From assembly GCA_963796285.1 (NCBI GenBank), contig CAWCKW010000012.1, forward strand, positions 1,760,001-1,824,000: a stretch of DNA of 64,000 bases. Reading direction: 5' to 3'. The DNA comes from Nitrospirota bacterium. Lineage in GTDB: Bacteria > Nitrospirota > UBA9217. The notes under the pieces were generated by a model. The model saw nothing but the letters and a program-made list of their open reading frames with translations. It did not search any database and had not been told where the DNA came from. The position numbers were made by a program, and so were the translations under genes. Numbering within the stretch: position 1 is the stretch's first letter; each line of letters opens with the position of its first letter. Shown here piece by piece: positions 1,945 through 61,545 of this stretch.

Positions 1945-2029
1945 ATCCACAGATTACGCTGATTTCACAGATTACATGCGAACCTGAATTGTACTTTAAA
2001 ATCTGCGTTCATCTGCGCAATCTGCGGAT
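1945..2029. repeat. Intergenic inverted element with periodic CACAGATT/AATCTGCG arms
   Basis: atccacagattacgctgatttcacagatt, then an AT-rich spacer, then aatctgcgttcatctgcgcaatctgcggat. Confidence 0.7.
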
Positions 2030-2091
2030 AGAACGTTTTTGCGTGTAACATACTTCAGGTTCCCGATATGCCGAATAGTTACTTCAAGACA

Positions 2092-4650: not shown

Positions 4651-4724
4651 TGGTTCGGGGACAGGGATTCGAACCCCGATAAAAGGCTTCAAAGGCCTCT
4701 GTCCTACCATTAGACGATCCCCGA
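4651..4724 (-). tRNA. tRNA-Gln(TTG)
   Basis: TCGGGGATCGTCTAATGGTAGGACAGAGGCCTTTGAAGCCTTTTATCGGGGTTCGAATCCCTGTCCCCGAACCA: cloverleaf, TTG anticodon, GTTCGAATC T-loop, encoded CCA; typical position upstream of prs. Confidence 0.96.
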
Positions 4725-9957: not shown

Positions 9958-10230
9958 ATTACACCTCCACACAATGGAAAGAATTAGAACATGTATTATA
10001 AACAATGGGGCCAATAAAAACAAGCGTTTTCGAGGGATATAGCCTTTGCAGTGTTTTCAATGTGCCTTCCTTCGTGCCTTTGCGCCGTCGTGAGAACAGT
10101 TGACTTCATACGAGATCATTAACTATTTGACATCCTTGAAGGTTTAATCAGGAATCTGCTTTTCAGCCTTGGCGCAAACAGCGGTAGGAACTTGAGTCAA
10201 AAGGATACCCCATTTCTGCCTTTCCGCAAT

Positions 10231-11865
10231 TCAAAAAATTCTCACCCTATCCCCCACTCTTATCCCCGAGCCTGCCGCGGTCTCGATCACCCAGGCAGCA
10301 CGCTCAAAAGTAAAATAAAGATCCAGACTCCCCGGCTTGCAATTCGGATAAATCCGGACGACCTTGTTATCGGAATTGATAAATACAATATCGATCGGGT
10401 ATGCAACGCTTCCCATCCAGAACGTGGCGGCCTCGGGCGTCTCGAACTGAAAAAGTGCGGCCTCGTTGGCCCGCAACTGACGAAAACCCTGCAACCCTTT
10501 GGACCTGGTCTCCTCAGTATCGCAGGTCAGCACGATGTCGAACGCGCGTGAAGCAGCATGGGTATCTAGCGGCAAAACAATCGCCGTTAACTCTTTTCCC
10601 GACCTCTCCGTTGCAACGGCTTCAGCGCCGTTTGCCAGTTTGACTTCAAGTGCGAGCACGAGGATGCCGATCCCTATCGTCATGGCCGTGATCAGCGCTC
10701 CGACGCGGAGATACTCCATAAACCCGATCTCCACCCGTTTTCTGGCCTGCTGCACCACGATCAGGTTGGCAACGGAGCCGATGAGCGTCAGGTTCCCTGC
10801 CAGGGTACTGCTCATGGCGAGTGTAAGCCATACGGCCTGTCCGCTGCCGAGCGTTTGGACAAGGGGTTTAAGCAGCATCACGGCGGGCACGTTGCTCACG
10901 AGATTCGAGAGCATGATGGACACCGCGGACAACCCCGCGATCCTGCCCAGAGGCGAGAGCGCCGTCAGATCGCCTGCCTGTTCGATCATTGCCGCGGCCA
11001 GACCCGAGACCTCCACCCCGTGCATCACGACGAACAATCCGGAAAAGAACAGAAGAAGCGTCCAGTCCACGCCTTCGAGGACCCGCTCCGTGCTCACTTC
11101 TCCGATCAGCAGGAGCGCTACTGCGCCGGCTGCTGCAACGAGCGAATAGGGATATCCCAGCGAGAAGGAAACGAGGACCGCGCCACAGACCAGGAGCGCC
11201 TTCACGAGCAGCGGCTTGTTCACGCGATACTCCGGCATCCGGGGCCGGGATGGAAATGCGCCGGCCTTCATTTCTTTCCTGTACACAAGCCAGATGACCG
11301 CGACGCTCACCGCCAGTCCTGCTATGGCGATCGGGAAGAGCGCCCCCAGGAAAGACAGGTAAGGTATTTTCGAAGATATTCCGATGAGCATATTCTGCGG
11401 ATTGCCGGTCACGGTCATGACACTGCCAATGTTCGACGATGTGGCGAGCGCGAGGAGATAGGGCAGGGGATTCACTCCCAGCTGGATGGTCACCTCCAGG
11501 ATGATCGGCGTGTACAGCAGGCAGATCGTATCGTTCACAAACAGGGCGGACAGCAGGCCTGACGATATCACCACCAGGATGAGGAGCTGGAGCGGTGTTT
11601 TCGAAAACGAGAGCATCTTGTCCGCCATAAGTTCGAAGAACCCCGCAGTCCGGAGATAGACCGTGATGATCATCATCCCGAGGAGCAGCAGGAGGGTATG
11701 CATGTCGATGGCGCTAAAGGCCTGGTCCAGGGTGAGCACGCCGAGGACGACCATCAGCACCGCGCCCACGAGCGCGCCCGCGGGCCGGTCGATCTGCAGG
11801 CGAGGGATCTGGCGCAGGCCGATGAACAGGTAGGTGATTAAGAAAATGATGAGTGCCGTGACCAT
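10231..11865 (-). CDS. ArsB/NhaD (CitMHS-like) ion transporter fused to C-terminal DUF192-like domain
   Basis: LSALFVND, SNIGS..T..GNPQN, SNLVSNVPA, GNLTLIGSVAN; the tail RSKGLQG...FWMGSVAYPIDIVFI...VIETAAG..IRVGDRV is DUF192-like. Confidence 0.82.
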   Translation of the reverse strand: MVTALIIFLITYLFIGLRQIPRLQIDRPAGALVGAVLMVVLGVLTLDQAFSAIDMHTLLLLLGMMIITVYLRTAGFFELMADKMLSFSKTPLQLLILVVISSGLLSALFVNDTICLLYTPIILEVTIQLGVNPLPYLLALATSSNIGSVMTVTGNPQNMLIGISSKIPYLSFLGALFPIAIAGLAVSVAVIWLVYRKEMKAGAFPSRPRMPEYRVNKPLLVKALLVCGAVLVSFSLGYPYSLVAAAGAVALLLIGEVSTERVLEGVDWTLLLFFSGLFVVMHGVEVSGLAAAMIEQAGDLTALSPLGRIAGLSAVSIMLSNLVSNVPAVMLLKPLVQTLGSGQAVWLTLAMSSTLAGNLTLIGSVANLIVVQQARKRVEIGFMEYLRVGALITAMTIGIGILVLALEVKLANGAEAVATERSGKELTAIVLPLDTHAASRAFDIVLTCDTEETRSKGLQGFRQLRANEAALFQFETPEAATFWMGSVAYPIDIVFINSDNKVVRIYPNCKPGSLDLYFTFERAAWVIETAAGSGIRVGDRVRIF

Positions 11866-11948
11866 GGATCGCAGCTTACCTTTGATATGGTGTTGTTCGT
11901 TGAGAAGCTTTAGTGGGCACTGGATTCACTCTACCGGCGGCGTTCCGT

Positions 11949-13319
11949 TTATCCCACGACATCAAGCTCGCGAACGCGGAACCGGGCGCCAAGTTCATCA
12001 ACGATCTTTCGGCAGGCCTCGACATCCACACCCGGCGCCGATACGATGGTAGCGGTTACCTCAGGGATATACTTCGTGGCCTCGCGGATAAACTCCTTGA
12101 CCGCCTCATACGCGGGGGCGCCGAACTGCGGCTGGGAAAGCTTCTCATAGACCTCGGCGTTCTGGGCATTCAGGCTCACGCTCACGGCGTCCACAAGCCC
12201 GGCCAATTCCGGCAGCACGTTCCGCTTATGGATCAGGTTCGCATGGCCATTCGTGTCGACGCGCACCTTGCCTCCCCGTCGTTTCACCTCGGCAGCCACC
12301 GCCTTGATCACATCCAGCCGGAGCAGCGGCTCACCGTATCCGCAGAACACGATCTCGTCATATCGCTTCGGGTCCCCGATTTCCTTGATGAGCTCCGCAG
12401 CTGTCGGCTCTTCTCGCAGACGAAGGTTGTGCCCCTTCACAAAATCGGTGTGATAGCGGACGCAAAACGTGCAGGCAGAGGTGCACCGGTTCGTGATGTT
12501 CAGGTAGAGCGAGTTCCGTATGGGATAGGTGATCTGGCCGCGTTCGGGTATCGTACCCATGCCGAAGAGCTGCATGGCGTTAAAGCTCGTGATCCTGCCA
12601 ACATCGTCCAGCGTCAGTCCCTTGATCTTTGCAATGGCCTCGGCCGTATGGCGCACGAAGGCGGGCTCGTTCCTTTTGCCGCGCATCGGGACGGGTGAAA
12701 GATACGGGGCGTCCGTTTCGACCAGCAGGTGCTCGATCGGGACCTGGCGCACGACCTCTCGCAGGGCTTCTGCCTTGGGGAACGTGACCGGCCCCGCAAT
12801 GGAGATGAGGAACCCCTTCTCGATCAACGTTCTCGCCATCTCCATGTCGCCGGAGAAGCAGTGCATGACGCCGCCGAGTCCGGGCGACCACTCTTCAGAC
12901 AGGATCTGGAGCATGTCCTCATGAGCGTCGCGGTCATGAACGATGATCGGGAGCTTGAGCTCGCGCGCCTCGTGCAGCATGTCTCGGAATTTTCTTTTCT
13001 GGTCCGTGCGGGGTGAATGCTCGTAGTGATAATCGAGCCCGATCTCGCCGTAGGCCACGACCTTCTTGTGCTGCGCGAAGTGCCTGAGGATGTCGTAGGC
13101 GGGATGAAGGATGTCCTTCACTTCGTGGGGGTGGATGCCGATGGCGGCATAGATGAAATCATGCTTATCCGCGAGCATCACCGCGTCGCGGCATGACTCG
13201 ATGGTCGTGCCGATGGTGATGATATGTTCAACGCCCGCTTCGCGCGCGCGTTTGATCACGTCTTCGCGGTCGTCATTGAACTCGCGCATCTCTAAGTGCG
13301 CGTGGGTGTCGATCAACAT
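11949..13319 (-). CDS. TatD hydrolase fused to TatD-associated radical SAM domain
   Basis: IDTHAH, GEIGLDY, HCFSG, ETDAPYL, followed by YLNITNRCTSACTFC (CxxxCxxC) and VFCGYGEP. Confidence 0.9.
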   Translation of the reverse strand: MLIDTHAHLEMREFNDDREDVIKRAREAGVEHIITIGTTIESCRDAVMLADKHDFIYAAIGIHPHEVKDILHPAYDILRHFAQHKKVVAYGEIGLDYHYEHSPRTDQKRKFRDMLHEARELKLPIIVHDRDAHEDMLQILSEEWSPGLGGVMHCFSGDMEMARTLIEKGFLISIAGPVTFPKAEALREVVRQVPIEHLLVETDAPYLSPVPMRGKRNEPAFVRHTAEAIAKIKGLTLDDVGRITSFNAMQLFGMGTIPERGQITYPIRNSLYLNITNRCTSACTFCVRYHTDFVKGHNLRLREEPTAAELIKEIGDPKRYDEIVFCGYGEPLLRLDVIKAVAAEVKRRGGKVRVDTNGHANLIHKRNVLPELAGLVDAVSVSLNAQNAEVYEKLSQPQFGAPAYEAVKEFIREATKYIPEVTATIVSAPGVDVEACRKIVDELGARFRVRELDVVG

Positions 13320-13338
13320 GTCTGCAACTCACAACACG

Positions 13339-13367
13339 GTAAGGGCGGGTTTAAAATCCGTTCCTAC
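13339..13367. repeat. Degenerate GTAG-type REP-like palindrome
   Basis: gtaagggcgggtttaaaatccgttcctac: GTA..CTAC ends around a GC-rich imperfect palindrome. Confidence 0.5.
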
Positions 13368-13389
13368 ACACTTTCTTTCTTGATTTTCA

Positions 13390-13420
13390 TTCCGTATTCC
13401 GCACTCCGAAATCCGCAATC
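13390..13420. repeat. 7-nt periodic arm (TCCGCAA-like)
   Basis: ttccgtattccgcactccgaaatccgcaatc; same unit as 59448-59541. Confidence 0.6.
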
Positions 13421-13423
13421 GGT

Positions 13424-15398
<1,975 letters not shown>

Positions 15399-15633
15399 GG
15401 TCTCGCTGTGCTCTTATTTTTCTTCCTACTCCCTGCTTCTAACTTCATAATCCGGACAAGCCGGAACCGGACAAATCATTTTCACGCATGACCGCAACTG
15501 GCCCAAAGGAAAGACTGTAAGTCTTGAATTAAAAGATTATCCTTTGTTTTTACCGATCTTTGCGGTCTTTGTTAATGGCCGCGCTTTCGCAGAGCAGGCT
15601 ACGGCTTTGCCGATATAAAGTTTTTCTCCCGCC

Positions 15634-17908: not shown

Positions 17909-18147
17909 AATTGATAAACTCAAGAGCGGTTACTATCATCCCTGGAACCACAAGGCAAGAATATTTCTGCAACAAAGACACCAAAACCCAGGAAAAGCAA
18001 AATACAGATGGCCCTACTTTTCGAGCAAGCGATACTGCTTCCCGCATGGATCTTAGCGCTTAAGTTCTAAGTGTGCCCCTCTTCTTGGCTATCGTGGCAA
18101 AGTTGGTTCCGGCTTGCCCGGACCGGCATTCCATCCATGCAACGTTC

Positions 18148-18795: not shown

Positions 18796-20695
18796 CTATT
18801 TAAGCTCCATGACGGTATCACCCTCTGCGCTGAGCGAAGGGTTGGAGGTGAACAGGATGACCTGGGTCTTCGCACCAAGACCACGAAGGACCTGGCATGC
18901 GGCCTTCTGCCTCGCCGGATCCAAGTCCGCGAGGGGGTCGTCCAATATGAACGGAAGACGTCGTTTTCCGGCAAGCGCCTCGACAAGACCGGTCCTGAGA
19001 CAAAAGTATATCAAGCTTTTGGTACCGTGGCTCAGTCCCGAATAGTCCATTGCCGAGTCGTCTTTGGCATGCACGACGGGCCCGCCTTCATGGCCGGCCT
19101 CGATCCTAATATACTTGCCCGCGGTAATTGCAGCAAGGTTCCTCTGGGCCGCCGCCTCAACCGCCGGGATCAGCGTCTCCATCTCGATCCCTCCGATCCT
19201 GCTCGCGATGCCGATCTCTTCGAGAAACCCACCCCTGCCGCCCGCAATTGAGTCCGGGGAAAAAGCCGGCAGTTCTTGCGGCTCGGCGCCAAAATCCCAC
19301 GACACCCCGGCTGACGCAGCGGATGCCTCGGAGTCCAGCCGTTCGATATCCTGCCGGATACTGTACGTATCTATGTTATTCTGGGCGACCGCCAGCGCGG
19401 CTTTTTCCAGTTCCGCTGCCTCCAGCTGGCGTTGCTCATGCTGCTGCTGCAGATTTTCCAGGGTCAGATCTCCAAGGCTCCGCTGTCGTTGCTCTCCAAG
19501 ATCAGCCCCAAGGGAGAAAAAATAGCGGTAATTCTCGGCCTTTTCTTTGAGCTCGGCCGGTGACGAGGCGCGTGTCGAGCGAAGTGCGGCCGTTATGGTC
19601 GCCCCTTCCTGCTGAAAACGTTTTTCAAGTTCAGCAAGCGCTTTCTTCAGGTCTTCCTCTTCCCGTAACAAGTTTTTGCGCCGCACGTTCTTCCGGGAAT
19701 CGTTGTACCACGCTACGGCCATCAGTATAAGTGAAAGGAGGACGCCGAGGGGAAAGAGGAGTTTCAGGTCCTCCGTGAGCACGAACACACCGGCCAGGAT
19801 CGAGATGACTCCCACCGCCACTCCGGCGATGAACAACTTTTCGGCAAAAAATTCCCGGGTCGGTATCGCCGCACGCTGACTCTTGACCCCTTCAATCTGC
19901 TTGTTGAGTTCTTCGGCATCGACCAGCTTCTGGCCCTGACGCCGCTCATAGTCGTCAATAAGCCCCGCAAGGTCCTCGGGCAGTCCCTCGTATCCCTTGA
20001 GCGACGGCAAGCGTTGACCCTATCTCGGCCTTCTTCCTCTCGATCTCTTCAAGGGAGCCAATTTTTTTCTCGATCTCTTCCAGCGCGAGTTTGGCTGACT
20101 GGTACTTGTAATCGGCATCCGCGGCCTCTTCCGCTTTGCGAAGGGTCTCATGGAGTTCGGCAAGGCGCTCCCTGTCTGCGGAGGACTTCACCCCCGCAGG
20201 CGGACCAAGCAAACTCGGCGCCGGCTGCGGCGCTGCGGCCGAAGCGAGTGATCCCGTTCGGGCCGCATGATGCTCCCGCTGGAATATAAAAATTCTGGCA
20301 AAATCGTCCTCGGACATACCGGCGGTCATTCCGGCCATAAACTGCGCCGCGCTGTCCCAGTCCTTGTGAAGAAGGTCGAAGTCCCTGCTCGTCGCGTTGT
20401 ATTTGGAAAGGTTCACAGCGCGTTTTGAGAAATCCTGGATAATGCGGTAGTAGGTCCCTTCATCGGAACTTATCACAAGTGCCGCACGCGAGGCATCGGG
20501 CGCCTGTTTTGATATCAGCGTTGCGAGAAGTACTGTCTGGTTGCTTGGAAAAAGCAGACGCTGCAGGGAGTCTGCCGCCGTGGTCTTGCCCGCTTCATTG
20601 CCCGCAACGACGAAATTCAACCCGCCCTTGAATCGCAGGCGGGCAAGTTCCCGAATCCCACGTACACCCTGAAGAACAAGCTCCACCAGGAACAT
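18796..20695 (-). CDS. YhaN/Rad50-like coiled-coil ABC-type ATPase with two membrane segments, frameshift near 20010
   Basis: N-terminal Walker A GNEAGKTT; C-terminal LSHGTK signature, ILDDPLADLD Walker B and QVILFT; hydrophobic hairpin within the coiled coil. Confidence 0.72.
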
Positions 20696-20771
20696 AAATA
20701 AGGCCCCTTTCCTCAATTAATTTGGTACTATAACGCAAGTGGCTAAAGTTGCAACAGGGAAAACTTCTCCG

Positions 20772-23269: not shown

Positions 23270-23384
23270 CGTTGTCTCTCGCAATGGCCAAGAAGAGGGC
23301 CACATTGTGACGCAAGGGACGAGAAGTTGTTAAACCAAAGCCTCATCCTCTTCTGTTCGGGCATTGCGAATAAAAATACTTGTC

Positions 23385-28467: not shown

Positions 28468-28650
28468 AACCCGGACAAGCCCCATTAGAGGCGAATGACT
28501 CTAAAGCGGGGCAAGCCGGAACCAAAACCTTTTTTGCCACAGAGTACATCGAGGTCACAGACGGAAAATGAACGGCAAATCTTTTAGCTATAAAATTACT
28601 TTTATCCTTTCTCTGTGTGCTCTGTGGCAGATTTATTCCGTCCCGGTTTG
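28468..28650. mobile_element. Composite MITE-like palindromic element (terminal motif + hairpin insert + CACAGAG/CTCTGTG arms)
   Basis: cccggacaag[36-bp hairpin]ccggaacc, then gccacagag...ctctgtgtgctctgtggc (28536-28628), then a degenerate right terminus. Confidence 0.55.
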
Positions 28651-36361: not shown

Positions 36362-37903
36362 TCAATGAACTGCAGGTGGTCCACCCGCGGCAGGCGCCTT
36401 TGCCCACTGCATAATGAACACCAGGGGGATAACGCAGAGGATAAGGAGGCAGATCACGAGAAACGCGTCCGTGAACGCGAGGGTCGTTGATTGCCTGATC
36501 AGTTCCCGGTACATCAGACCGTCGGCGCCGGCGGGCGGCAGTCCCTTCAGGCTTAAGGCGCCCGCTATCTTTTCATGAGCCATGACGTAGCCCGGGTCCA
36601 GCGGCGATAGATGTTCCACCAGCCGCGTCTGGTGGAACTGCGCCCTGCGCGAGAGAATGGTCGTTGTCATGGCAATGCCCACACTCCCTCCCAGGTTCCG
36701 CAGAAGGTTGTAGACCGAGGTTGCCTCGGTCATCCGCTCTTTCGGGATATGCGAGAGCGTCAAGGTCGTGAGCGGGATGAACGTCATACCCATACCGAAA
36801 CCCAGCGTCATCCGCGGCCAGACAAAGGTCCAGAAGTCAGTTGTAAGATTAAACCTGGACATCATGTACGTGCTGATCGCGCAGACCGACATGCCGAATA
36901 CGAGGAACCGTTTCGGGTTCACCCTGCCGATGAACTTCCCGGCGATCGGCATGGCGAACAGGGTGGCGATGCCTCCGGGGCCGAGCACGAGCCCGGCATA
37001 GAACGATGTATAGCCCATCATCATCTGGAGGTAGATCGGCAGCAGCACGATGCTGCCGAAAAGGTTCAGAAAGACGAAGAACATCACCAGGGAACCGCTC
37101 GTGAACGTCCGGTCCTTGAACAGCTTCAGGTTGACGATGGGGGTCTCTGAATAATATTCATTGATCGCCAGGAGCGTGAGGGATACGGCCGCTATGATGC
37201 CGAAGGTCACGATCTTGCCGGAGGCGAACCAGTCCTCGCTCTCACCCTTGTCGAGCATGAACTGGAGCGCGCCGAGCCCGACAGCAAGGAACAAGAGCCC
37301 CCAGTAGTCGATCTTCATCTTCTGGCGCTTCATGTACGGTGGGTCCTCGATCACGATGACGTTCATGATGATCGACAGAATGCCGATCGGTATGTTGATA
37401 TAGAAGATCCAGCGCCAGGAGAGCGTGTCGGTGATCCATCCGCCGAGGAGCGGGCCCACGATCGGGCCCACCATGGCTCCCAGTCCGAAAATGGCCATGG
37501 CCTGGCCGTGTTTCTCCCGGGGGAAGGATTCGAGCAGGATGGACTGGCTGATCGGGACGAGACCGCCGCCGCCGATGCCCTGGAGGATCCGGAAGAATAT
37601 GAGGCTGTTCAGGCTCCACGCCGAGCCGCACATGAAGGAACTGAAGGTGAACAGCGCGATGGAGGCGATCTGGTAGTTTTTTCTGCCGATAAGCTTGGCC
37701 AGCCAGCCCGCCATGGGGATCACGATGGCGTTCGACACGAGGTAGGCGGTGATGGTCCACGTTGCTTCGTCGTACCCGGCGGAGAGCGAACCCCTGATGT
37801 GATCGAGCGATACGTTCACAATGGAGGTATCGATGATCTCGATCAGGGTAGGGAGCATCACCGTGAATGCAATTAATCCCCTGCTCCTGCTGCTCATGTT
37901 CAT
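36362..37903 (-). CDS. DHA2 MFS efflux permease (EmrB family)
   Basis: DTSIVNV, WTITAYL, FRILQGIGGG, GPLLGGWITD..SWRWIFYINIPIG. Confidence 0.93.
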   Translation of the reverse strand: MNMSSRSRGLIAFTVMLPTLIEIIDTSIVNVSLDHIRGSLSAGYDEATWTITAYLVSNAIVIPMAGWLAKLIGRKNYQIASIALFTFSSFMCGSAWSLNSLIFFRILQGIGGGGLVPISQSILLESFPREKHGQAMAIFGLGAMVGPIVGPLLGGWITDTLSWRWIFYINIPIGILSIIMNVIVIEDPPYMKRQKMKIDYWGLLFLAVGLGALQFMLDKGESEDWFASGKIVTFGIIAAVSLTLLAINEYYSETPIVNLKLFKDRTFTSGSLVMFFVFLNLFGSIVLLPIYLQMMMGYTSFYAGLVLGPGGIATLFAMPIAGKFIGRVNPKRFLVFGMSVCAISTYMMSRFNLTTDFWTFVWPRMTLGFGMGMTFIPLTTLTLSHIPKERMTEATSVYNLLRNLGGSVGIAMTTTILSRRAQFHQTRLVEHLSPLDPGYVMAHEKIAGALSLKGLPPAGADGLMYRELIRQSTTLAFTDAFLVICLLILCVIPLVFIMQWAKAPAAGGPPAVH

Positions 37904-38780
37904 TTTGCCAGTACCACCGGCTCAACGGACATGCCGACTCTCAAAAGATGCTCTTTGTCCGTTCCTTCCTGGAAAACGATCTTGATCGGGATCCGCTGGA
38001 CCACCTTGACGTAGTTGCCCGTGGCGTTCTCCGCGGGAAAGAGAGAAAAGGTCACGCCGGTGCCTGCCATGATGCTGTCAACCTTTCCCTTGAACTCCTT
38101 CCCGGGAAAAGAGTCGATCGTCATCTTGACCTCCTGCCCCGGGCGGATGCGCTCCATCTGGGTTTCCTTGTAGTTGGCGACGACGTACAAACTGTCCAGA
38201 TCGACAATCGCCATCAAGGGCTGGCCGGTCTGCACTTGATTACCCGTTTGGACGGATTTTCGTCGTGACATACCCGTCCGCAGGCGCCACGACCGTAGTG
38301 TATCCCAGATTGAGCTCCGCATTGCCGAAGCTGCTCCTCGGCGAGTTTCACCTGCGCCAGGGAGATCTCATATGTTGAGACGGCCTTATCGTAACGCTCG
38401 GTCGAACTCGCATCCTGTTCGTATAAGGCTTTGGCGCGCTTTCGATCGCTTTCAGCGAGGCGCAGCGTAGCGCGCTGGAGTTCGCGGTTCGCTTTCGCGG
38501 CCTCGGCCTTCGACTGGTAATCCGCGGGATCGATCTCGACCAGGAGGTCACCCTTCTTCACCCGCTGGTTGTCGTTGACGAGGACGGCCTTCACATTGCC
38601 GCTGACCCGCGCCGAGATGGTATGGATGTTGCCGTCAATGAAAGCATCGTCGGTCGAAACATGCGTCTTGCGATAGGCGCTGTAGAAATAACCGAGGGTG
38701 AGTCCGATGACCACGACCACCCCGACGATCATGAAGGCTTTTTTCTTTTTCTGTCCGCTGCCCGCCTGTTCTTCTGCCAT
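37900..38780 (-). CDS. EmrA/HlyD-family adaptor, frameshifted near 38260-38325
   Basis: STDDAFI..ISARVSG in ORF 38214..38780; ANYKETQ and ENATGNYVKVVQRIP in ORF 37900..38322. Confidence 0.88.
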
Positions 38781-40902: not shown

Positions 40903-41040
40903 TTTGAGGATCTCGTAAAAAGTCATTATCCACCGCCGAGACGCGGAGACACGGAGAAGTGCATATTGAAAATAAAGAGGGATTCCCTCTGCGCCTCTGC
41001 GTCTCAGCGGTTAAATTCGATTATTGGGGGTTCATCATAT
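40903..41040. mobile_element. Composite palindromic element (GATCTCGTAAAAAGTC end, GCGGAGA/TCTCTGC arms)
   Basis: Homologous to 61351-61545 in arms, spacer and gtctcagcggttaaattcga. Confidence 0.55.
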
Positions 41041-42332: not shown

Positions 42333-42552
42333 AATTCTACTTCAAAACGGCAAGAATATTTCTCGCAATGGCCAAGAAGAGGGCCACACTGAGGCGCAAA
42401 GCTCGCAAAGAAAGGCTAAACTATTTGTTTTTTTTAAAACAAGGCTTAAAGATTTTCTTGGCGTCCTTTGTTTATGGCCGCAGAGCTGGGGCTACGTCTT
42501 TGCGCGAGACGCTTTTCGGTTTTGACCTTCCGGTTCCGTCTTTTCGGGTTAG
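42333..42552. mobile_element. Composite palindromic element carrying two hairpin inserts
   Basis: tctcgca[tggcc..ggcca]ggcgcaaag...cttggcgtcctttg[tttatggccgcagagctggggcta]cgtctttgcgcgaga...tcgggttagg. Confidence 0.55.
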
Positions 42553-56029: not shown

Positions 56030-56278
56030 CGATCGACGAAAAGCCGTCAAAGGGGCATCTCGCGCAAAGCCGTAGCCTGCTGTTGCCCCCTGCTCTTGCG
56101 ATAGCGCGGGACAAGCCAAAACGCGGCCATAAACAAAGGCGCAAAGAACGTCAGAACTTTGGAATATAGAGTAAACCAAAACCAGGATTTGCTTTCCTTT
56201 GCGACTTGGCGTCTTTGCGCGAAAAAGTTTTTGCATTTTGTCCGTTCGTACCTGCGTAGATATAAATAAGGATTAAAC

Positions 56279-59447: not shown

Positions 59448-59541
59448 TTGCGGATTGCGGATCTCGGATTTCGGATTTTAAATCCGCATTCCGCAATCTG
59501 TTTATGCCAGCGCTCTCGCAAGAGCAGGTACAATCCGCAAT
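59448..59541. repeat. TTGCGGA/TCCGCAA 7-nt periodic inverted element with 30-bp hairpin insert
   Basis: ttgcggattgcggatctcggatttcggattt / aatccgcattccgcaatctg[tttatgccagcgctctcgcaagagcaggta]caatccgcaat. Confidence 0.7.
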
Positions 59542-61350: not shown

Positions 61351-61545
61351 ATTGATGATCTGGTAACGATGCATAATCTACCGCGGAGACCCGGAGAAAT
61401 ACATGTTGAATATAATGAGGATTTTCTCTGCGTCTCTGCTTGTGCCCGCGTTTTGGCTTGTCCCCGCGCTATCGCAAGAGCAGGGGGCAACAGCAGGGTA
61501 CGTCTCAGCGGTTAAATTCGATTTATGAATGTGGATCCACCAAAT
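61351..61545. mobile_element. Composite palindromic element with doubly nested hairpin insert
   Basis: Homolog of 40903-41040 carrying an extra 62 bp at 61439-61500. Confidence 0.65.

Follow-up and report, generated by a model that had tools for sequence, protein, structure and literature searches.

The window, that is the whole 64,000-nt stretch of Nitrospirota DNA analysed here, carries at its right-hand side an intergenic palindromic repeat occupied by a 62-bp insert. Alignment of 61365-61535 with an empty paralogue places 62 extra bases after ...ctctg, at a junction corresponding to 40999|41000 and with both flanks in register, so that the clean insert proposed in a preliminary description of this DNA is borne out. 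The insert is composed of CTTGTGCCCGCGTTTTGG, a 31-nt inner cassette and CAACAGCAGGGTA, and the inner cassette occupies the GCAA loop of an outer one, also of 31 nt (Table 1). Because the outer 31-mer occurs without interruption at four distinct sites (L010, L032 twice and L097; three loci in two assemblies), the 62-mer is indeed one unit lying within another, in agreement with the nested pair described earlier.

The host repeat is ~100 bp long and has two ~32-bp arms, which are inverted copies of 7-9-mer runs (ccgccgagacgcggagacacggagaa ... ttctctgcgcctctgcgtctcagcgg), and an AT-rich centre. In appearance it resembles a MITE or a long hairpin. Copies are present in at least three assemblies (window 40925-41025 and 61365-61520; L053 9885-10055; L011 9600-9745; L102; L051 3770-3900), and the homologous repeat is met in three states: empty (window 40925, L051), with a single cassette (L053, L011) and with a double one (window 61365, L102).

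Seven units of the 31-nt family lie at five sites in the 64 kb, and one cassette of a 36-nt sister family lies at a sixth. Their occurrence in the window is not due to chance (three matches to the core pattern, versus none in 100 dinucleotide shuffles). The inverted double at 56073-56133 was located as previously described, with one C missing from its inner copy, and so were the two single cassettes (42471-42494 and 59501-59530), while the cassette at 15572-15601 is additional to the earlier list. The element at 28480-28515 (minus strand), also counted as a member before, does have the CTTG foot and a hairpin, but it belongs to the 36-nt sister family, of which two more copies were found in a close relative (L011 and L054, one assembly), and with CTTG on both flanks its junction is ambiguous by four bases. 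No Rfam family matches the region or the cassettes; the sole Rfam match in the window is a tRNA gene (4654-4724, minus strand).

Table 1. Cassettes, target sites and host repeat in the window
Feature	Position	Strand	Details
Single cassette between PSP1 and metG genes (antisense)	15572..15601	+	38.3 bits; common to orthologous locus L054
Empty site of the 36-nt family (ggttccgg^cttgcccgg)	18105..18121	+	Orthologous L054 site filled
36-nt sister-family cassette, CTTG + CCCCGC...GGGG, different apical hairpin	28480..28515	-	
Empty target site, right arm of ~100-bp palindromic host repeat	40987..41020	+	Junction 40999|41000
Short 24-nt variant, foot and basal stem retained, apical stem replaced	42471..42494	+	15.2 bits, E=0.045
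Second double cassette, outer TTTATGGCC...GGCTA, inner copy 56086-56115	56073..56133	-	61 nt; between HlyD-like and AcrB-like genes, antisense to both
Single cassette in (ATTCCGCA)-type array, directly upstream of enoyl-CoA hydratase gene	59501..59530	+	
Palindromic host repeat bearing double cassette	61365..61535	+	Paralogue of 40925-41040
Outer cassette (61439-61500), left part	61439..61456	+	Foot CTTGT, basal stem, to first G of GCAA loop; paralogue alignment
Inner 31-nt cassette at G^CAA of outer loop	61457..61487	+	Covariance model 49.6 bits, E=6e-12; pattern match
Outer cassette, right part (CAACAGCAGGGTA)	61488..61500	+	Paralogue alignment

Anatomy and spread of the cassette family

Each unit begins with an unpaired 5' foot of 4-5 nt (YTTRT or CCTGY), followed by a GC-rich basal stem of 5 bp, in which a G.T wobble is usual; a small internal loop separates this stem from an apical one of 4 bp, which is capped by the loop GCAA. 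Unit lengths are 24-36 nt. There is a single hairpin per element, with no distinct left and right ends, and the right end coincides with the end of the stem. Over 33 distinct sequences, 96.3% of 296 cells pair in the structure ....(((((..((..((....)))).))))). and sliding the 3' partner by 1-3 columns drops pairing to 38-49%; the covariation score was reached by none of 500 shuffles. The GCAA loop is closed by C-G in 23 sequences and by G-C in nine, and the closing positions are unpaired in none, under a search pattern that permitted all four S..S combinations. Basal pairs vary on both sides (UA/CG/UG, and CG/GC), with pair 5-31 being UA in 20 cases, CG in six and UG in six. The earlier remark that changes in the stems preserve pairing is thus upheld by the covariation analysis. 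At the three basal pairs free of search-pattern constraint, 25 G.T were counted against one A.C in 99 cells, an excess which marks the foot-first strand as the folding strand. The folding energies predicted for the hairpins as DNA are modest (single cassettes, -4 to -6 kcal/mol; z from -0.07 to -2.36 over all ten folds) and do not clearly separate cassettes from shuffled sequence, and for this reason support for the fold was drawn from covariation.

One scan of species-representative genomes, with a degenerate 22-mer spanning the "outer" and "inner" types, returned at least 109 loci. Among the matches listed, a unit with the characteristic foot and flanks is present at 54 of 109 loci from at least 19 assemblies, 18 of them labelled Nitrospirota, Nitrospirae, Nitrospiria or Thermodesulfovibrionales and one Acidobacteriota; all listed loci labelled Nitrospirota carry the cassette. 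The remaining 55, from other phyla, look like chance matches, since they have neither the foot nor the typical flanks. The family is dispersed in uncultivated Nitrospirota, and both the further copies and the family of ultra-short foot-plus-hairpin elements that had been predicted from the window do exist in these assemblies. In the MAG labelled Acidobacteriota (L059) a typical cassette lies between typical flanks; this could be a mis-binned Nitrospirota contig or a true occurrence beyond the phylum.

Un-nested "outer" copies are numerous among the matches listed, and one MAG holds at least 12 cassette loci. A covariance model added just four copies in 614 kb of flanking DNA, indicating that the family is moderately, not massively, repeated and that the window is comparatively rich. 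Positions are mostly intergenic and copies almost all singletons, the exceptions among 59 covariance-model matches being an inverted pair spaced by 56 bp (L053) and a pair arranged head to tail (L105). We found no description of such elements in Nitrospirota in the literature; in a 2025 REP survey, three Nitrospirota genomes are entered in the count table and the terms "insertion", "nested" and "RAYT" do not occur.

Complete doubles number at least six (two in the window, and L011, L023, L065 and L102), and in all six the inner unit occupies the identical position, between the G and the C of the outer GCAA loop. At L063 (3347-3408, minus strand) a cassette loop is interrupted at this G^C step too, here by another 31-nt sequence, one that does not fit the family model. 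L042 and L083 have the look of former doubles from which 13 bp between two AGCAGGG direct repeats have been lost.

Insertion sites and differences between relatives

The consensus of 58 junctions is TYYG^CG, with T at -4 in 41, a pyrimidine at -3 in 56 and G at +2 in 43. Insertion had been placed at a G^C step in the preliminary description: the G before the junction stands in 58 of 58 sites, but C follows it in just 43 (T in 10, A in 5). Junctions are precise and show no target duplication, as had been claimed; where a cassette begins with C, the position of its junction is uncertain by one base. Insertion is into DNA that is likely unpaired or slipped, namely runs of short tandem 7-9-mers, the arms of a palindromic intergenic repeat, and hairpin loops. 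Units of the tandem flanks are lineage-specific (aatctgcg, ctttgcgg, ctctgcg, attccgc, cacaccctgcactcg), and the same 31-mer occurs in unrelated contexts (aatctgcg, ctttgcgg, attccgc and ctctgcg arrays as well as a ggcaac hairpin loop). The element's own loop, TTGG^CAAC, is a target-like site, which explains the nesting. At L053 each arm of a palindromic host repeat, left and right, holds a cassette, in opposite orientations, and we conclude that orientation follows the target strand. The strict motif is insufficient for insertion, as 36 of the 193 TYYGCG sites in the window are both intergenic and unoccupied. A periodicity score on the joined flanks barely discriminates (0.44 at sites versus 0.40 at random positions), and the tandem-array context is therefore taken from reading of the flanks. 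Intergenic tandem runs of 7-9-mers are abundant in general, with a lineage-dependent unit (window 2000-2030, 15480-15570, 42380-42520 and 56140-56225), and recall the heptamer arrays of cyanobacteria.

Relative to co-directional neighbour genes, 12 cassettes are in sense and 11 in antisense orientation, in a count with 22 "genic" calls, most of which fall in 600-bp loci or where a stop-to-stop ORF has an uncertain 5' end; this argues against an RNA-level role, a terminator or an mRNA element. Orientation was split 14 versus 23 against the sign of local GC skew (p=0.19, n=37; origins unmapped, skew weak and power low) and 20 versus 17 against the majority gene strand.

A related genome (L054/L055) is syntenic with the window over 7.8-26.7 kb, with 92.8% identity over 18,871 columns. 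The 15572 cassette is common to both, with two small differences. Two others are present in the relative and missing from the window: a 31-nt cassette (L054 9995-10025) and a 36-nt one, for which the empty site is readable at window positions 18105-18121. Outside two gene-scale insertions there are just three indels of 20-45 bp, namely these two cassettes and one array-length change of 24 bp, or three units (window ~15500 versus L054). Filled and empty alleles, a comparison suggested previously, can thus be seen between relatives, and at the level of sequence these differences are consistent with mobility on a short evolutionary timescale. The designation "recently active" can be used in a relative sense only: the 15572 copy predates the split and looks decayed. 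Its window version has lost a loop base, through what could be neutral decay or an indel error. The two gene-scale insertions in the relative (~2.2 kb and ~1.2 kb; L055 15414-17816 and L054 2619-3811, against window 10035-10238 and 24122) were considered as transposons and rejected, their ORFs being ordinary-looking and none of them RAYT-like; by eye they are membrane transporter-like, cupin-like and pirin-like.

Differences of 1-2 nt were frequent in the same alignment, with 50 such indels in 18.9 kb against the intact orthologue, including 10 in metG. Where cassette copies differ by a single base, the difference is for this reason not to be trusted and may be a sequencing error. The metG gene (13332-15398, minus strand) is broken by its ten 1-2 nt indels into at least four ORFs, while the L054 orthologue is one ORF of 659 aa; an HlyD-like gene (37903-38780) and an AAA/SMC-like gene (18799-20716) are fragmented as well, a pattern that points to assembly indel errors and not to pseudogenes.

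Candidate enzymes and known mobile elements

None of the 61 ORFs in the window matches a transposase family, as the preliminary description had it. A local search with E. coli RayT against 6,864 ORFs gave one clear relative, at L001 9385-9951, with 86 bits to the NCBIfam model NF047646 "REP-associated tyrosine transposase" (cut-off 80), 25.4 bits to Pfam Y1_Tnp (cut-off 23), and HYH and YLYNNP (Y...NP) motifs in the translation; judged by family models and motifs, this ORF is a predicted RAYT. It lies 50 bp from a cassette, which is inserted into the loop of a hairpin of another kind. The RAYT and a degraded copy at L043 are bracketed by hairpin A (GCCGACcgtGTCGGC) and hairpin B (GGCAACatgGTTGCC), the latter tandemly repeated with TTGGTCCAAA and being the one that holds the cassette. 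Both hairpins occur in two assemblies and are absent from the window, and together with the RAYT they are a second, separate mini-element system. The low-GC RAYT locus (L001 9316-10110) sits between kdsD-like and downstream genes; L043 has the remnant of a RAYT with an internal deletion, and A+B units of ~55 nt in which the gene is missing (500-850, 1055-1125 and 9960-10060).

The L001 RAYT was considered as the cognate enzyme of the cassettes and not retained, the hairpins that flank it being of a different family in two assemblies. The HUH/Y1 link drawn earlier for the cassettes does not gain from this gene or its degraded L043 copy, the only RAYT found, and a RAYT or TnpA(Y1) gene flanked by the same hairpins, proposed as a check, did not turn up: in ~0.6 Mb sampled from 19 assemblies, no HUH gene is flanked by cassettes. 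Of the 183 ORFs that lie no more than 2 kb from a cassette, 150 were scanned, and just one transposase was detected at E<=1e-8, of the IS91-type Y2 kind (L029). This gene (10720-12972, minus strand; Y2_Tnp and zinc-binding domain) is ~700 bp from a cassette and adjoins a gene of the phage-integrase family. No gene family recurs beside the cassettes, the largest cluster among 896 ORFs covering four loci, and no reverse transcriptase or similar gene recurs near them.

REPs and cyanobacterial SDRs are the nearest known kinds, and in behaviour SDRs come closest. REPs are intergenic imperfect palindromes of 20-40 nt, with frequent G.T pairs in the stem and sub-families that differ by complementary stem changes, as described in three sources (PMC3733652, PMC2817692, PMC6006769), and some REP families lie inside small palindromic targets, according to PMC3733652. 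The cassettes are similar in being short (24-36 nt), palindromic, dispersed and mostly intergenic, in their G.T pairs, complementary stem changes and palindromic targets, in the unpaired tetranucleotide at the foot of the hairpin and in the presence of a RAYT in the clade. They differ in the tag, as the wobble strand opens at its 5' end with an unpaired YTTR, as against GTAG or CGTC. On the complement, the ends read TAGCC, TACCC, CACCC, CCCCC or CGCCC and are paired with the 5' arm, and the leading G would come from the flank; a GTAG, in part flank-derived and base-paired, can be read on the complement in a single sub-family. Membership of the GTAG/CGTC-tagged REP superfamily, as defined in PMC3733652, was therefore rejected: the unpaired tag is lacking, the copies are singletons (one inverted pair among ~55) in contrast to REPIN/BIME dimers, and the RAYT is flanked by other hairpins, with no REPtron in the ~0.6 Mb from 19 assemblies. 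A further difference from REPs is that the cassettes let one see exact sites in both the empty and the filled state, as well as self-nesting.

The SDR families, SDR1-8, are hosted by Nostocales. The SDRs of Elhai et al. 2008 are reportedly 21-27 nt long, and are said to nest and to be associated with tandem heptamers. Compared in behaviour only, SDRs and cassettes have in common that they are dispersed repeats of very small size, presumed mobile although no enzyme is known for them. Precise insertion in a short sequence is another shared feature: SDR5 goes between nucleotides 3 and 4 of the HIP1 octamer, as stated in PMC4390886. Phylum, length (24-36 nt) and target (TYYG^CG) are different, and so, probably, is the sequence.

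Two families of HUH elements were also compared. IS200/IS605 elements are expected to show a lagging-strand orientation bias, which was not detected in the cassettes, with a skew that is weak (14 versus 23, see above). With IS608 and ISDra2 (as presented in PMC6006769) the cassettes share the absence of target duplication, strand-specific insertion 3' of a short conserved target, a hairpin with a tetranucleotide 5' of its foot, and a substrate presumed to be single-stranded. The invariant G at -1, the TYYG motif and the opposite orientations in the arms of the host repeat are what an IS200/IS605-type derivative would show upon insertion, whereas the single hairpin differs from the distinct left and right subterminal hairpins of these elements, and neither a parent IS nor a Y1 gene with cassette ends was found in the sampled DNA. 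IS91-family elements (Y2 HUH) have the target CTTG/GTTC. Here too there is no target duplication and a tetranucleotide is adjacent, the commonest cassette foot is CTTG, and the L029 transposase is near a cassette; the differences are that this co-occurrence is a single one, that ori/ter-like ends are not present, and that the CTTG belongs to the insert and not to the target, since the empty site reads CTCTG before the junction.

Possible modes of cassette movement

The 62-bp insert consists of two nested copies of a ~31-nt non-coding, non-autonomous element, and we propose, with confidence that is about evenly balanced, that this element is moved in trans by an HUH enzyme. The foot-first strand would be the active form, cut out and pasted as single-stranded DNA by a tyrosine enzyme of the HUH class, whose gene would lie at another place in the genome and which would be of the RAYT, IS200/IS605 TnpA or IS91 kind; both this enzyme and the single-strand intermediate are what we infer from the features of the copies. 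Mobilisation of this kind is favoured because insertion is precise, duplication-free and strand-oriented, 3' of a short motif, because the 5' foot is unpaired and one strand folds, and because the targets are likely unpaired. This is the pattern of HUH single-strand transposases and of REP cleavage by RAYT, with one tetranucleotide, the guide, 5' of the hairpin foot and another, the target, flanking the left end, according to PMC6006769. The L001 RAYT, as a sign that an HUH enzyme is available in the clade, also counts in favour. Against it we count the fact that no HUH gene is flanked by cassettes in the sampled DNA, the finding of just one transposase among the 150 neighbouring ORFs, the orientation bias that was not found (at low power), the single hairpin without distinct ends and the modest fold energies, and further that a GNRA-type loop and G.U-type wobbles would suit an RNA form equally well.

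An alternative that we regard as possible, though rather unlikely, is that the cassettes are SDR-type mobile mini-elements moved without HUH enzymes, for instance through an RNA hairpin intermediate copied into DNA or through a site-specific nuclease and templated repair. The GNRA-type GCAA loop with its covarying closing pair and the dominance of G.U-type wobbles on one strand are in keeping with this, as are the cognate transposase that was not found beside any of ~55 copies, the replication-strand bias that was not seen (at low power), and the precise insertion of SDR5 in HIP1 with no known enzyme, reported in PMC4390886. However, orientation is unrelated to transcription of the neighbours, no reverse transcriptase or similar gene recurs nearby, and duplication-free, strand-specific insertion 3' of a short motif is exactly the HUH pattern. 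It is improbable, in our view, that the cassettes are not independently mobile at all but are functional hairpins (a terminator, protein-binding site or small RNA) spread through duplication or conversion of carrier repeats by recombination. While cassettes are always found in repeated contexts (tandem arrays, and a palindromic host repeat in several genomes), with flanks that are similar within lineages (e.g. ...ccctgcactcg before 10 copies) and a double cassette that recurs as a unit at no fewer than six sites, the same 31-mer is present in unrelated array types and in the ggcaac hairpin loop, homologous host repeats are empty, single or double, and nesting takes place at one exact loop position. 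Random orientation with respect to genes and the absence of an Rfam match also speak against a functional hairpin, and so does the loop base that the 15572 copy has lost in the manner of neutral DNA, with the reservation already made about indel errors. That the inserts are artefacts of assembly or sequencing is scarcely conceivable despite the many 1-2 nt indels of the window and the fragmented metG, as identical 31-nt units following the same junction rule are found in at least 19 independent assemblies from different projects.

To our knowledge, how REP singletons and SDRs, the smallest repeats of bacteria, actually move has yet to be proven, since a clean set of donor, empty and filled sites can seldom be seen. 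Seen at single-base resolution, the present family displays an invariant G, no duplication, orientation set by the target strand, one folding strand, self-nesting at one position, and empty, single and double sites. How cleavage and joining proceed can therefore be put to a direct test with short oligonucleotides. The family also carries the notion of mobile repeats of very small size into an unrelated second phylum, one known for the most part through metagenome assemblies, and in practical terms cassette inserts create indel differences between close strains and mark intergenic hot spots.

We put forward, as a speculative and rather unlikely extension, that the cassettes and the cyanobacterial SDRs may form a distinct class of autonomous-looking minimal mobile DNA, in which one ~31-nt hairpin would hold all cis information for excision and for strand-specific, duplication-free integration at an unpaired TYYG^Y. 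The enzyme might then be not a REP-flanked RAYT but a housekeeping or unrecognised single-strand DNA enzyme, or an HUH enzyme with an unusually small, one-hairpin substrate. The tandem 7-9-mer arrays could be a by-product of cassette activity or a co-evolved landing pad. A larger composite intergenic repeat, with copies in the window (18060-18125, 23277-23326 and 42361-42410), at L054 (9790-9900) and at L073, L021 and L023, contains the hairpin ATGGCCAAGAAGAGGGCCAC and a small palindrome, GGTTCCGGCTTGTCCGGG, which is the landing site of the 36-nt cassette.
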